From NCBI GenBank assembly GCA_030679255.1, contig JAUXTO010000013.1:84383-148382 (forward strand): 64,000 nucleotides of DNA, in the 5' to 3' direction. The stretch is from Candidatus Gottesmanbacteria bacterium. Its GTDB lineage: Bacteria > Patescibacteriota > Microgenomatia > UBA10105 > UBA927. Made by a program: the position numbers and the translations under genes. Below are positions 42,889 through 46,855 of the stretch, piece after piece (within the stretch, counting starts at the first letter, position 1; each line of letters begins with the position of its first letter). The notes beneath the pieces are model-generated. The model saw nothing but the letters and a program-made list of their open reading frames with translations. It searched no databases and had not been told where the DNA came from.

Positions 42889-43794
42889 TTAAAGCACCGC
42901 TCCTCTCGTGGCAAGCTGCAACAAGAGTAGTAACACCGCAAAAAATGCCATGTGTCCGACGCTGTGGCCGGATACGCGAATAATTTTTCTCCGATAGACA
43001 TACCAGCCGTCTATCACAACAACCAAGAGAATAAGCCCTGCAAATCCGGTCGTTACCTGTTTGGAAATCGAGGAAATATCAACCAGCGGCTGCTTCAGTA
43101 CGTCCGTCAGCCCAAACGTGTTATTTTGAGCTGCTACTGTCGCAAACGGCTGTACCACGACAAGTGCTGATGGGGCCGTTGCCGCCGCCGTCGGGGTGAG
43201 AATGGTAGGCTTTATCTGATAGGCGAGTTGGCTATCTCCGGCACCGAACATTTGGACCACCAGCGTAGTTTCCTCTCCGGCCAACACACCGTTAACCACA
43301 GCAAAACCTATATCTTTATAGTCGCCCCGCATAATATTTTCCCGGTGGGTGGGGGAAGCCATCCAGGCATCTACAACTCCGCTGCTTACCGAAAAATTCT
43401 TGGCAAGGTTCTCGCCGGCTACCCGATAGCGATACCCTGCCACAGTGACAAATTCCCACGGTGTTTTACCGCTAGGGCTGTTGTGCGCCCAATACCCCTT
43501 AGCAAACATGTCCTGCGCTTTGAGCGCGGCTGCCCGGGAGAGTCGTTGATCTAAAACGAGCGCCCCGAGTCCTGCTTCGGCACGTTTCGCGTTGATGGCA
43601 GAAAAAAGCTGCTCTACGCGGATGTCTGTGGCAAACCCCAACACATCGGGAAATTGCGTATGTCCCAGAGTAAGGAGGAACTTGAACAAGACGAATGCAA
43701 GAAGATATACAAACATCGCGTCTACATGGAGTACGCGCGCGTGATGATTATTACTGTGATGTGGCGTAAACAAATGACGGATACCATTACCCAT
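42889..43794 (-). CDS. CAP/SCP (PR-1-like, YkwD-type) domain protein, membrane anchored
   Basis: N-terminal transmembrane segment, then GYWAHNSPSG...GENLA...AWMASPTHRENI, which are CAP-domain motifs. Confidence 0.55.
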   Translation of the reverse strand: MGNGIRHLFTPHHSNNHHARVLHVDAMFVYLLAFVLFKFLLTLGHTQFPDVLGFATDIRVEQLFSAINAKRAEAGLGALVLDQRLSRAAALKAQDMFAKGYWAHNSPSGKTPWEFVTVAGYRYRVAGENLAKNFSVSSGVVDAWMASPTHRENIMRGDYKDIGFAVVNGVLAGEETTLVVQMFGAGDSQLAYQIKPTILTPTAAATAPSALVVVQPFATVAAQNNTFGLTDVLKQPLVDISSISKQVTTGFAGLILLVVVIDGWYVYRRKIIRVSGHSVGHMAFFAVLLLLLQLATRGAVL

Positions 43795-43839: not shown

Positions 43840-44748
43840 TCAAGAAGAGTATCGATCATCTTCATAGATTGGCACAACGGTTTGTCCTACGAATAAATTA
43901 TTGATGGGAACTCCAAGAAGAACTCCAAGTGTATTGGCAAGAGCAACACCCACGCGAAGGCCGGTATAGGAACCCGGACCTGTATTGACGCGTATCGATG
44001 TAATATCGCCAAGGACGTGGTGTGACGTATCTAAAAGTTTCACAATCAAGGGAAGTGCCTCCTGAGCTTTACCCACACGCATATCGCGCGCTTTGAGCGT
44101 TTGATGGCCGTGCGCATCGATGAAGCTCACGGCTATGACGTCCGAGCGTGATGTGTCAATAGTAAGGGTGAGCGGCTGTTTCAACAGTACGACTCCCTGA
44201 CGAATAATCCTAATGGTTCCGGTGGAACAATCTACGACGGTTGACGCGTTCCCGATAGAACATACCCCAGGTACGACATAATCCACGAGCTTGATGAGCT
44301 CCAGATCCAAATCTTCATAGCAGTAGGGAGTAGGAGACCCATGAAAATTGGCTGATGGCCCGAGGATCGGCACACCCACCCCTCGGATAAGCTCCAAGGC
44401 GGTCTCGTGATTGGGCATACGTAAACCAATATTTTTTCCGCTACCACGGATAGGGGAGTACACTAAATTTTCTTTACACCCAGCGATAATAGTAAGCGCA
44501 CCGGGCCAATACGTTTTCATCAGATGTCGTACAATTTCTGACGGATCGAGATAGTAGGCGAGAGCCATAGCCTTGGATGCAACCAGAACCGGGGTCGCCT
44601 GTGTACGCGGGCGTTTACGGAGCTTAAACAGTCTGTCTACCGCTTTCACATCATCCATCCGGCACCCTATGCCGAAAGCTGTATCCGTCGGATACATGAT
44701 GATACCGCCCTCCTTTAAAACCTGAATCGCTTGCTTGATACTTTCCAT
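43840..44748 (-). CDS. fusion of L-threonylcarbamoyladenylate synthase TsaC (YrdC domain) with an N-terminal-domain-only TsaB (YeaZ) module
   Basis: N-terminal 185 aa: MYPTDTAFGIG...LGPSANFHG...STVVDCSTGTIRIIRQG is the YrdC/Sua5 signature. C-terminal 115 aa: LTLTIDTSRSDVIAVSFI...NTGPGSYTGLRVGVALANTLGVLLGVP is the TsaB/YeaZ N-domain signature. Confidence 0.6.
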   Translation of the reverse strand: MESIKQAIQVLKEGGIIMYPTDTAFGIGCRMDDVKAVDRLFKLRKRPRTQATPVLVASKAMALAYYLDPSEIVRHLMKTYWPGALTIIAGCKENLVYSPIRGSGKNIGLRMPNHETALELIRGVGVPILGPSANFHGSPTPYCYEDLDLELIKLVDYVVPGVCSIGNASTVVDCSTGTIRIIRQGVVLLKQPLTLTIDTSRSDVIAVSFIDAHGHQTLKARDMRVGKAQEALPLIVKLLDTSHHVLGDITSIRVNTGPGSYTGLRVGVALANTLGVLLGVPINNLFVGQTVVPIYEDDRYSS

Positions 44749-44753
44749 AGTTA

Positions 44754-45272
44754 TTAGATGACTCGCTCCATCGAAATTTTATGCGAATCGTTTTCCAATA
44801 CCTCAAATCGTATATCAACCCTTCTTTTTGGAAGTAATCCACCCAATGTATCAGCCCATTCGATAAGTACGATCGAATCCGAATCTCTCAGCATTTCCGG
44901 GATTCCCAACTCAACAAGCTCTTTTTCGTCACCAATACGGTACAAATCGATATGATATAAAAATCCTGATTGTTTTACCAGTTGATAACGTCGTACAATA
45001 TAAAAAGTCGGGGAGAGCAGGCGAGAGGTAATTCCTAATGCTTTTCCAAATCCCTGAACAAACGTCGTCTTCCCACTGCCCAGTTCCCCATATAAACAAA
45101 CAGTCAATGCTCCCCGATCTTGTTCACTTTTGACTTTTGACTTTCCCGCCTGCAACGCTTGATGCGTAGCATTTGCGGGCAGGTGACTTTTGACTATATG
45201 AATCCCCAACTCTTGGCCAATGCGCGCAGTTTCTTTGGGCTCCGTGGTAATAAATGGGTAAGTGAAATCCAT
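44754..45272 (-). CDS. tsaE: tRNA threonylcarbamoyladenosine biosynthesis protein TsaE with a 23-aa in-frame insertion
   Basis: LYGELGSGKTTFVQGFGKALG P-loop and YHIDLYRI...LIEWAD C-terminus. The insert KSHLPANATHQALQAGKSKVKSEQ sits between helix alpha-1 (ETARIGQELGIHI) and strand beta-2 (ALTVCLYG). Confidence 0.7.
   Translation of the reverse strand: MDFTYPFITTEPKETARIGQELGIHIVKSHLPANATHQALQAGKSKVKSEQDRGALTVCLYGELGSGKTTFVQGFGKALGITSRLLSPTFYIVRRYQLVKQSGFLYHIDLYRIGDEKELVELGIPEMLRDSDSIVLIEWADTLGGLLPKRRVDIRFEVLENDSHKISMERVI
45127..45195. repeat. 69-nt heptamer/palindromic repeat element, copy C
   Basis: CTTTTGACTTTTGACTTTCCCGCCTGCAACGCTTGATGCGTAGCATTTGCGGGCAGGTGACTTTTGAC is about 85% identical to copy B, and the loop region differs. 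It lies in-frame inside tsaE and ends at the VanZ-like gene stop codon. Confidence 0.7.
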
Positions 45273-45607
45273 GCAATGCTTGCTCCTATGGCGTCAATTA
45301 TAACATCCCGAAGCCTCCCCTCCCGTGTCGGAACGAACAGTTGGTGTATTTCATCCGTAACAGCATAGATGAGTGTCAAAAAAAATGCGACCGCAAGTAA
45401 ATTGATTCCGATGGAAGCACGTAGAGTATTTTTTAATGCTCGGAAGTACAAAACAAACAAAATGGAGTACTCGATCACATGGAGCGTTTTAAAAAATAGG
45501 AAATTGATGAGAGGCTCCTGGGCAACCTGAACGCTTGACCTGCCAGATAAGAAAAAAATCACTCCCATCCAGGCCACAACCGGAAGCCAATATCGGACAA
45601 ACTTCAT
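45194..45607 (-). CDS. VanZ-like family membrane protein
   Basis: 137 aa, four transmembrane segments, TDEIHQLFVPTREGRLRDVIIDAIG VanZ motif. The 3' end overlaps the tsaE start by about 77 nt in another frame. Confidence 0.5.
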   Translation of the reverse strand: MKFVRYWLPVVAWMGVIFFLSGRSSVQVAQEPLINFLFFKTLHVIEYSILFVLYFRALKNTLRASIGINLLAVAFFLTLIYAVTDEIHQLFVPTREGRLRDVIIDAIGASIAWISLTHLLPRSPKKLRALAKSWGFI

Positions 45608-46509
45608 TTATCCAGTATATCAGAATGATGCTCCCGCGCGATCTTCCAGGTATAAACCCCGGCAAGCATAGCCAAACCAATCGCCACTAAGAGCATAGAA
45701 ATGACCATCGGCTTCCAGGAATTATTGGAAGCATACGCGCTTGGCGATGATGTTTTCGCTTCGACACGCTCGCCCAATACGAACAGCTCCCTCACGGCAG
45801 GTTGTTCCTCTGCGTCTTCTGCGGTTGAAGGTACTCCGGGAGACGGAGATTTGGATACCATAAGTGTAGACATAGGAGTACTCGTTGGTGAAGGTGTCTT
45901 CGTCGGTGTAGCTACAGCCGTGGGCGTAGGAGTAGCGGTAGGCTTAGTAGTGGGGGTAGGAGTTGGCGTCTTTGTTGGCGTAGGCGTAAAAGTTGGGGTG
46001 GCTGTGGCTTGCGGCGTAGGTGTTGGAGTCGGTGTTGGAGTTGGTGATGGCGCCAAATCAGAACATTTCGATGATGATTTCGATGGCGTTTGATTTACTT
46101 GCCAACTCCCACCATCCGGAACCCGCGCGTATGATTTATCCGCAGAACTACTCGCGTATTGATAACTATCAATAAGCGAACCATCAAGCTTAAATATCGT
46201 TGGCGTGTCGCCATTGTTGTTCAGATACGTCGAAAGCTCTACATAGCATGTTGCACTGGATAATAATAAACCAGAAATTGCAAGTCTTCCCGATGAGCCG
46301 CTATCAGAATCAAAATTAGTATCATCATCAAAGTAATAATTCGATAAATCCTCCGAGGATGGCTCAGTGTTATAAAACTCAATCCACTCTACGTTCCCGC
46401 TTGAAGGCGCTGGAAGAAATTCATTGATAACAACGGCGGCAAAAGCACGAGGAGGAAATGTAATGAAGAAACAGAGACTGATAAAAGCCTTGATTAAAAG
46501 GGGTCTCAT
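45604..46509 (-). CDS. secreted lamin-tail-domain (LTD) protein with Pro/Thr-rich linker and C-terminal TM anchor
   Basis: Signal peptide [24 protein letters not shown], then the LTD motif [22 protein letters not shown]. The (TP)n linker is about 65 aa and there is a C-terminal hydrophobic segment. The start is taken at the Met adjacent to the upstream stop. Confidence 0.55.
45920..46120. repeat. low-complexity coding repeat (Pro-Thr linker)
   Basis: GGTGT/AGGNGT-type repeats encode [34 protein letters not shown]... in the LTD protein. Confidence 0.6.
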
Positions 46510-46510
46510 G

Positions 46511-46855
46511 TCACATCCCTCCCTCTCTTGTATGTCGCTCTTTTTTATACGCATACACAAACCGTGACTCGTCACTCCCGCCGCCTGACCCTCCATCTGT
46601 TTGATAGTTTGTAATAAAGTACCGCTCTACTCTGCGCGCCGCATCTGCGGTAACGCATTCCCTATATATCCAATAATCCATATCTTTGTTTACGCCATGC
46701 TCTTCAAACAACCTCGCTTGCGCGTTTTCGGCAATACCCACATACCAGTCTGTGGACAGCGTATTGGTTTTATGGATATATTCAACTATGTCGTTTACAA
46801 TACTGCTTTCTTGTTGTGGCATAGTCCAAGTGTAGATTGGTGATCGGTGACTCAA
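46511..46855 (-). CDS. small hypothetical protein, possible GIY-YIG-like (YhbQ/UPF0213-type) domain
   Basis: YVGIAENAQARLFEEHGV resembles the YIG...R...H half of the GIY-YIG motif. An upstream IYTW may be the GIY half, and RRVERYF a possible Glu site. Its stop is 1 nt before the LTD gene start. Confidence 0.3.
   Translation of the reverse strand: MSHRSPIYTWTMPQQESSIVNDIVEYIHKTNTLSTDWYVGIAENAQARLFEEHGVNKDMDYWIYRECVTADAARRVERYFITNYQTDGGSGGGSDESRFVYAYKKERHTREGGM

Follow-up and report, generated by a model that had tools for sequence, protein, structure and literature searches.

A TsaC–TsaB fusion protein and a stand-alone family of C-lobe-less TsaB proteins in the Microgenomates

Few tRNA modifications are universal; one of them is the N6-threonylcarbamoyladenosine at position 37 (t6A37), which is essential to the majority of bacteria. 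Two bacteria-specific proteins of its synthesis, TsaB and TsaE, are considered drug targets. Here we analysed a stretch of 64 kb from the Candidatus Gottesmanbacteria contig JAUXTO010000013.1, which whole stretch is referred to as the window, and in it a single gene whose product of 302 residues joins a TsaC domain to a short TsaB, hereafter mini-TsaB, that consists of the N-terminal lobe and a C-terminal tail. Positions are those of the window, and residue numbers those of the 302-residue fusion protein.

Results

The fusion gene and its domains

The fusion gene lies on the minus strand between tsaE and a gene for a CAP-domain protein, in the following arrangement:

43840..44748, minus strand: the whole tsaC–mini-tsaB fusion gene, one open reading frame (ORF) of 302 codons plus TGA, with an ATG start and no internal stop
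44188..44748, minus strand: TsaC/YrdC catalytic domain, residues 1–187, predicted to synthesise L-threonylcarbamoyl-AMP (from TIGR00057, Foldseek and motifs)
44173..44187, minus strand: short in-frame linker L188-L-K-Q-P192, at the place where relatives have the stop codon of tsaC and the start codon of mini-tsaB (from the comparison with the split loci L003, L004, L085, L087 and L089)
43897..44172, minus strand: mini-TsaB core, residues 193–284, elements β1-β2-β3-α1-β4-α2-β5 of the ASKHA N-lobe (from TIGR03725, DSSP and Foldseek)
43843..43896, minus strand: C-terminal tail, residues 285–302, with P293-I-Y295 at nucleotides (nt) 43864..43872, the counterpart of 'EPVY217LR' in the canonical TsaB
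44754..45272, minus strand: tsaE, for the ATPase subunit (172 amino acids, aa) of the t6A transfer complex (from PF02367, TIGR00150 and motifs)
42889..43794, minus strand: the gene of a membrane-anchored CAP-domain protein, next downstream

A first-pass annotation made from the sequence alone had read this gene as TsaC fused to the N-terminal domain of TsaB, quoting as signatures of YrdC and TsaB the motifs YPTDTAFGIG, LGPSANFHG, STVVDCSTG, LTIDTSRSDVIAVSFI and NTGPGSYTGLRVGVALA, all of which we found in the 302-residue protein. The HMMER domain annotation proposed there gave the expected two families, PF01300 on residues 9–185 (Pfam; E 1.4e-44, 152 bits against a cutoff of 25.1, model positions 1–178 of 178) and PF00814 on residues 229–282 (E 1.6e-9). 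From NCBIfam, the TsaC model TIGR00057 matched residues 2–188 with 157 bits (cutoff 123.2), and the TsaB model TIGR03725 matched residues 195–282 through model positions 2–88 of 212 (E 7e-17), in which instance the curated cutoff of 69.3 bits was not reached by either the whole fusion (62.1 bits) or the mini-TsaB domain alone (65.4 bits). The models of TsaD/Kae1 scored only 18–21 bits on the ASKHA part of the fusion, with cutoffs of 208–375, and by tblastn the mini-TsaB part aligned with residues 4–89 of Escherichia coli TsaB.

In the TsaC domain, PTDT and S132-x-N134 (here S132-A-N134) align with the Sua5 of P. abyssi, and both S132-A-N134 and R46 are invariant. The KxR site reads R44-K45-R46 (44611..44619, minus strand), its Lys being replaced by Arg, which replacement is invariant in 85 members of the clade, fused or unfused. 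The domain is expected to make threonylcarbamoyl-AMP (TC-AMP). In the mini-TsaB part, helix α1 carries Q229..L232-P233, and G257-P-G-S-Y-T-G-L-R265, which opens helix α2, is invariant or nearly so. The linker between the two parts comprises 5–7 residues, the junction reading ...RQG-VVLLKQP-LTLTIDTS.... The stop codon of tsaE is placed 5 nt ahead of the ATG of the fusion; at the other end only 45 nt separate the stop of the fusion from the CAP-domain gene, so that no space is left downstream for a hidden C-lobe of TsaB.

Predicted structures and fold matches

An AlphaFold2 model of the fusion, built on an alignment of 85 sequences, had a mean predicted local distance difference test (pLDDT) value of 90.7. 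Its elements, as assigned by DSSP, were a YrdC fold followed by β1 (194–198), β2 (204–210), β3 (216–222), α1 (228–242), β4 (251–254), α2 (261–278), a short β5 and the tail; i.e., an N-lobe only. By Foldseek, residues ~1–187 matched the Sua5/TsaC structures (the Sua5 of P. abyssi and of S. tokodaii, the TsaC2 of T. maritima and the YrdC of E. coli) with E values down to 4e-18 and root-mean-square deviations (rmsd) of 1.3–2.9 Å, those over ~187 columns being 1.3–2.0 Å, and the C-terminal ~91–104 residues matched YeaZ/TsaB in its N-terminal domain (E 1.6e-8, rmsd 1.6–2.9 Å). A model of the stand-alone mini-TsaB P0301 was likewise confident (pLDDT 93.8, predicted template-modelling score, pTM, 0.86), and its best 30 matches in the Protein Data Bank (PDB) were, without exception, TsaB/YeaZ chains, the N-lobes of TsaD/Kae1 coming next. 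In 29 of those 30 matches the E value was at most 1.7e-7, the TMq 0.68–0.80 and the rmsd 1.3–3.0 Å; the TMt of ~0.40 indicates that only the N-lobe of the solved TsaBs is covered.

Search for tsaD and for a TsaB C-lobe

Neither tblastn with the TsaD and TsaB of E. coli K-12 nor profile hidden Markov models (HMMs) run on all six-frame ORFs found a tsaD or a TsaB C-lobe in the 64-kb window, where the sole TsaD/TsaB-like segment was the C-terminal part of the fusion; and a regular-expression scan of the six frames of the window found no TsaD motifs. These results, together with the HMMs, the two confident AlphaFold models and Foldseek, bear out the description first given of the locus: a TsaC fused to a TsaB N-domain beside tsaE, with no tsaD in the window, in a reduced Candidate Phyla Radiation (CPR) genome. 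The same tblastn queries against 80 related loci gave neither a tsaD nor a full-length tsaB, and eight gene neighbourhoods around fused and split genes, all of them syntenic, contained no tsaD. When viral contigs were scanned with the degenerate motif CTDN[GA]AMI, six TsaDs were obtained, each either Proteobacteria-like or from a Firmicutes-like prophage flank; CPR contributed none. As a side result of that scan, the IMG/VR contig L094 (1..14962) showed a prophage that had integrated, in a Firmicutes-like genome, beside tsaD and rimI.

Mini-TsaB as a stand-alone family

To place the short TsaB among its relatives, we used residues 186–302 in an exhaustive HMMER search against 1.84 billion cluster representatives, from which we obtained 3535 matches. 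Among the best 149 of these representatives, 137 were complete proteins of 95–125 aa, all Met-initiated, the fusions amounting to a handful, and only one, P0233 (204 aa), had the length of a normal TsaB. A profile built from 76 mini-TsaBs gave 6278 matches, the best 120 of which were nearly all of 100–116 aa, and TIGR03725 was the best family for each of the 76 mini-TsaBs tested. The short TsaB is a stand-alone family of ~105-aa proteins of Microgenomates/CPR with thousands of members, and, since these stand-alone proteins are its closest relatives, it was not made by the fusion. The members share ~40% mutual identity, with an invariant G-P-G-S-x-T-G, the Q/L-P in α1 and the Tyr of the tail. 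In the public databases, JGI and the PGAP of NCBI label some mini-TsaBs as TsaB; for the fusions the name given is TsaC alone. As a separate observation, the 284-aa protein P0121 carries a KTI12/AAA_33-like P-loop kinase domain joined to a mini-TsaB sharing 53% identity with that of the window, which architecture was seen in one cluster and may be a chimera.

The first-pass annotation had held that TsaB simply stops after ~115 aa, its C-terminal half being absent. That the C-lobe is missing was confirmed; the simple stop was not. Near the end of mini-TsaB a P-x-Y, often in the form AEP-x-Y, is nearly invariant, being present in 105 of 116 stand-alone proteins; P-x-[YF] occurs within the last 30 residues in 117 of 118 full-length TsaBs (in E. 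coli as EPVY217LR), and Y295 is kept in at least 90% of the sequences in three alignments. When mini-TsaBs and full-length TsaBs were aligned together with MAFFT, the former matched the latter over β1–β5, residues ~100–210 of the E. coli protein formed one long gap, and the tail Tyr of all 28 mini-TsaBs scored fell on E. coli Y217. Since that Tyr aligns at Y217 across the gap, mini-TsaB comprises the core of the N-lobe together with the canonical tail at the C-terminus. It is, on the evidence of the alignments, the product of an internal excision (helix α3 and the whole C-lobe, ~110 residues) with the EP-x-Y tail retained, and not of a plain truncation. The C-lobe-less TsaB is a more fundamental feature than the TsaC–TsaB fusion.

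Fused and split states of the operon

The relatives of the window shared a conserved gene order that is syntenic with it: prfA-like, ftsE, ftsX, ..., tsaE, tsaC (192–193 aa), mini-tsaB (101–109 aa), the CAP-domain gene and dTDP-sugar (rml) genes. The tsaE-tsaC-tsaB operon was kept in all the related loci inspected, with tsaD unlinked. In the split loci the stop of tsaC and the ATG of mini-tsaB were 1–25 nt apart or overlapped by 4 nt, and both genes shared one frame in L003 and L004, with a single stop codon between them; judging from these junctions, one substitution or a small indel would suffice to convert the split state into the fused one, or the reverse.

The exact 302-aa protein is present in NCBI as 'MAG: L-threonylcarbamoyladenylate synthase [Candidatus Gottesmanbacteria bacterium]' (source lineage Patescibacteria group, Microgenomates group; MAG, metagenome-assembled genome), and also in a Logan assembly. 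As to how widespread the fusion is among relatives, it proved to be shared by 91 of the best 120 homologs, which were two-domain proteins of ~285–340 aa, none approaching the ~400 aa that a full-length TsaB would require, with identities from 89% down to ~45% and from NCBI, JGI, ENA and Logan assemblies; nevertheless, it is a minority and labile state. The excess of fusions among those homologs is a ranking effect, since two-domain matches score higher, and by ORF inspection only two (L001 and L002) of the 12 loci of GTDB species representatives with both parts were fused. Uninterrupted fused ORFs were found in L001, L002, L098 and L099.

In a neighbour-joining tree of the TsaC domains (91 fused, 29 split), the two states were interleaved, parsimony requiring at least 20 changes as against ~26 with shuffled labels. 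The closest pair of opposite states comprised L098 (fused) and L096 (split), in which pair the identity was 95% across the initial 485 nt of tsaC and 99% across the final 138 nt of mini-tsaB; between these stretches L096 has a diverged replacement, part of which is a 640-nt insert bearing a retropepsin-like gene in antisense. As this pattern of identity shows, part of the interleaving of fused and split states is due to recombination. Two kinds of insertions between tsaC and mini-tsaB were recorded:

L096 1073-1486 and L097 619-1032, opposite strand: antisense gene for a 137-aa retropepsin-like aspartic protease (PF13650/PF13975)
L084 10579-10818: hydrophobic ORF of 79 aa, zero Pfam matches

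The tsaC/mini-tsaB junction has, in appearance, the character of a hot spot of insertion or recombination. Another relative encodes P0107 (323 aa), a TsaE–TsaC fusion with PF02367 on residues 3–122 and PF01300 on residues 144–318, which protein indicates that adjacent genes of the tsa operon have merged in different pairs.

Neighbouring genes and further observations

The TsaE encoded ahead of the fusion matched PF02367 (E 5e-32) and TIGR00150 (104 bits, cutoff 60) and has the conserved motifs GELGSGKTT (Walker A), SPTF, YHIDLYR and EW. Directly ahead of the Walker A motif it bears an insertion of ~25 aa (KSHLPANATHQALQAGKSKVKSEQDRG) that is not in the four relatives compared. The 5' end of tsaE overlaps an upstream VanZ-like ORF (45194..45607) by 79 nt, which overlap is the same in L084; further upstream, a 330-aa protein (45604..46596, minus strand) contains a long low-complexity linker rich in Pro/Thr and, at its C-terminus, a transmembrane segment. 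In the relatives the membrane-anchored CAP-domain gene was always downstream of the tsa genes, cell-envelope and dTDP-sugar genes being in this way linked to t6A genes.

A scan for promoters and terminators gave matches at chance level only. ARAGORN found zero tRNA or tmRNA genes in the whole window; the GC skew was negative across its whole length, and the genes examined near the fusion locus were mostly on the minus strand. The GTDB loci L001, L003, L009 and L010 are titled 'uncultured Gammaproteobacteria bacterium' despite an operon of the Microgenomates type, a wrong label on the MAGs or contaminant contigs being the probable reason.

Discussion

Proposed function of the fusion protein

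We propose, and regard as probable, that the gene product is bifunctional in t6A synthesis, a TsaC being tethered by fusion to the transferase, through a mini-TsaB that docks on a separate TsaD. The enzymatic activity, the binding to TsaD and the benefit of channelling are argued from the known TsaC/TsaB/TsaD/TsaE system, from which we also infer the functional coupling of the fusion to the t6A transfer complex. According to this proposal, the N-terminal type-1 TsaC would convert threonine, bicarbonate and ATP into the labile TC-AMP; the mini-TsaB would heterodimerise, by docking through its helices α1/α2, with a TsaD encoded elsewhere; and the adjacent TsaE would reset the TsaD–TsaB complex. 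In most Microgenomates tsaC and mini-tsaB are separate and presumably translationally coupled neighbours, and the fusion would have arisen in this lineage upon the loss of the stop and the start between them, after which TsaC would be held on the TsaD–TsaB platform at a 1:1 stoichiometry and TC-AMP be released beside the transferase.

In the solved complexes, the TsaB–TsaD interface is a four-helix bundle formed by α1/α2 of both N-domains, with GPGxxTGxR on the bundle; TsaB's C-terminal tail reaches over the interface onto TsaD; TsaE touches the bundle at its end and the two domains of TsaB; and Pcc1, an unrelated small protein, mimics the bundle on Kae1 (PMC6009658, PMC9654439). Since α1/α2, GPGxxTGxR and the tail, which belong to the TsaD interface, are among the parts retained, the mini-TsaB would be expected to dock on TsaD; by analogy with those complexes, it may have kept the TsaD-binding parts and shed the rest, apart from part of the contact with TsaE. 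That a TsaD partner exists is further implied by TsaE, in which the SPT(F/Y) peptide, the part inserted into the active site of TsaD, is retained.

Several observations weigh against this proposal. No tsaD was found in the ~25 related loci covering ±10 kb or in the window, and we infer its presence elsewhere in the genome, where a second, full-length tsaB may also be encoded. In the TsaC domain this clade has Arg in place of the Lys of the catalytic KxR...SxN tetrad, a conservative change. The pTM of the fusion model was 0.68, which value suggests that the predicted TsaC and mini-TsaB domains have no fixed mutual orientation. The loss of the C-lobe must alter the interface with TsaE, since TsaE normally contacts both TsaB domains. 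Finally, the fusion has been repeatedly gained, lost or recombined and is the minority state among the species representatives (2 of 12), so that the advantage of tethering is probably modest.

Alternative explanations

An indel or a base-call error could have merged an adjacent tsaC and mini-tsaB in this MAG, for the genes are so close in the relatives (1–25 nt), and in L003 and L004 separated by just one in-frame stop, that a single error would mimic a fusion. The first-pass annotation had itself named such a frameshift or sequencing error as a danger to its reading, but the frame is continuous and conserved across many independent assemblies: the exact protein recurs in the NCBI MAG and the Logan assembly (though both may share reads), the frame is unbroken in relatives at 89%, 79%, 73% and down to 50% identity from four sources, 91 of the 120 best homologs are fused, and L001, L002, L098 and L099 are uninterrupted, which evidence renders an artefact very improbable. 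The same annotation had considered that the C-terminal 115 aa might be a SUA5 domain, in which circumstance the protein would be an ordinary synthase of the Sua5/TsaC2 type with a divergent C-terminal domain; and the length of 302 aa is indeed Sua5-like, as the NCBI name is merely 'L-threonylcarbamoyladenylate synthase'. The Sua5 structures, however, align over ~187 columns only, the remainder superposes on YeaZ/TsaB N-lobes, residues 195–282 match TIGR03725 and PF00814, and this segment also occurs by itself, as a protein annotated as TsaB. On the strength of the TIGR03725 and PF00814 matches and of Foldseek we rejected the SUA5 identity, whose likelihood we consider practically nil.

Two further explanations accept the mini-TsaB as a TsaB derivative and dispute its role. 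That it is a decaying, non-functional remnant, the work being done by a full-length TsaB encoded elsewhere, might be suspected from its TIGR03725 scores of 62–65 bits, below the curated cutoff of 69.3; yet the family has thousands of members with ~40% mutual identity, invariant motifs and the tail Tyr, the split mini-TsaB keeps its own start codon even after insertions, the structure models are very confident, and only one full-length protein appeared among the 149 closest cluster representatives, with no full-length tsaB in the related loci, so that we deem a remnant decidedly improbable. Somewhat less improbable, though still unlikely, is that the mini-TsaB serves mainly as a homodimerisation module of TsaC, through the YeaZ-type α1/α2 homodimer, and not as a dock for TsaD. 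Isolated TsaB/YeaZ proteins do dimerise via α1/α2, and the TsaB of T. maritima also via β3, all of which elements are kept in the mini-TsaB; but in the characterised systems the active species is the TsaB–TsaD heterodimer, to which the TsaB homodimer yields, and t6A synthesis there is abolished when the TsaB–TsaD interface is mutated; the linkage with tsaE, too, is conserved. Moreover, because the stand-alone mini-TsaBs far outnumber the fusions, dimerising TsaC cannot be their primary role. We accordingly retain the docking of the mini-TsaB on TsaD as the preferred explanation.

Comparison with known systems

The canonical TsaB/YeaZ (TIGR03725; E. coli 1OKJ/4YDU, T. maritima 6S84), which is both the best HMM match and the best fold match of the mini-TsaB, shares with it the N-lobe topology β1β2β3α1β4α2β5, GPGxxTGxR, the Q..LP in α1, the EP-x-Y tail and the linkage to tsaE. 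The mini-TsaB, for its part, is without helix α3 and the C-lobe (E. coli ~100–210), measures ~105 aa as against 200–231 aa, scores just under the curated cutoff and, in the window, is covalently joined to TsaC. The N-terminal 187 residues of the fusion are a complete synthase domain of the YrdC fold, with PTDT and SxN, as in a type-1 TsaC/YrdC. Like the fusion, Sua5/TsaC2 has an extra C-terminal domain of ~110 aa after a short linker; the extra domain of the fusion, however, is a TsaB N-lobe and not SUA5, and Arg stands in place of the Lys of KxR.

HypF, TobZ and the Pandoravirus TsaN resemble the fusion in that a YrdC-family adenylate-forming domain is linked to an ASKHA module of the Kae1/TsaD family, and share with it the logic of delivering a labile acyl-adenylate. 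HypF aligns to the fusion through both domains and in the same order, although the global superposition is poor (rmsd ~13.6 Å). The ASKHA partner in those proteins is a complete, catalytic, two-lobed transferase, whereas that of the fusion is the N-lobe of the non-catalytic paralogue TsaB, for which reason transfer still needs a separate TsaD. With Pcc1 of KEOPS and with the Qri7 homodimer, it is enough that two helices are contributed to the bundle at the Kae1 or Qri7 N-lobe, and the mini-TsaB would, by analogy, be the bacterial equivalent; the fold of Pcc1 is nevertheless unrelated, the mini-TsaB being a true TsaB derivative. Neighbouring t6A genes merged likewise in the archaeal Kae1–Bud32, in the TsaC/HemK of Mycoplasma genitalium and in the TsaE–TsaC protein P0107.

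The fusions described in the reviews and structural papers on t6A are Kae1–Bud32, TsaC/HemK, HypF, TobZ and TsaN (reviews PMC4615747, PMC9654439, PMC10484737), and TsaB is described there as a two-lobed ASKHA protein. The first-pass annotation took the TsaC–TsaB architecture as not known to have been described, and we found no mention of a TsaC–TsaB fusion or of a truncated or N-lobe-only TsaB in PMC4615747, PMC9654439, PMC10484737, PMC9297842 or PMC6744442, or in a full-text literature search, though an earlier description is still possible. The proteins themselves are already in public databases; the fusion and the mini-TsaB are new variant features of the known t6A system for which we found no description.

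Significance

An N-lobe-only TsaB with thousands of members constitutes a natural experiment on which parts of TsaB are needed, and the close fused and split versions of TsaC–TsaB offer a ready pair for asking whether tethering improves the use of TC-AMP. Because the score of the mini-TsaB is just short of the cutoff of TIGR03725, and databases give the fusion no name but TsaC, TsaB may wrongly be called missing in these CPR genomes by pathway reconstructions and by TsaB-based marker completeness; TIGR03725 is, we presume, part of the GTDB bac120 marker set.

On a broader scale, and as a tentative idea that we think doubtful though by no means negligible, a whole branch of the CPR may run t6A synthesis with a minimal, C-lobe-less TsaB, TsaC taking the former place of the C-lobe in the fused lineages and giving rise to a HypF/TobZ-like machine from separate subunits. 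[quoted passage not shown]

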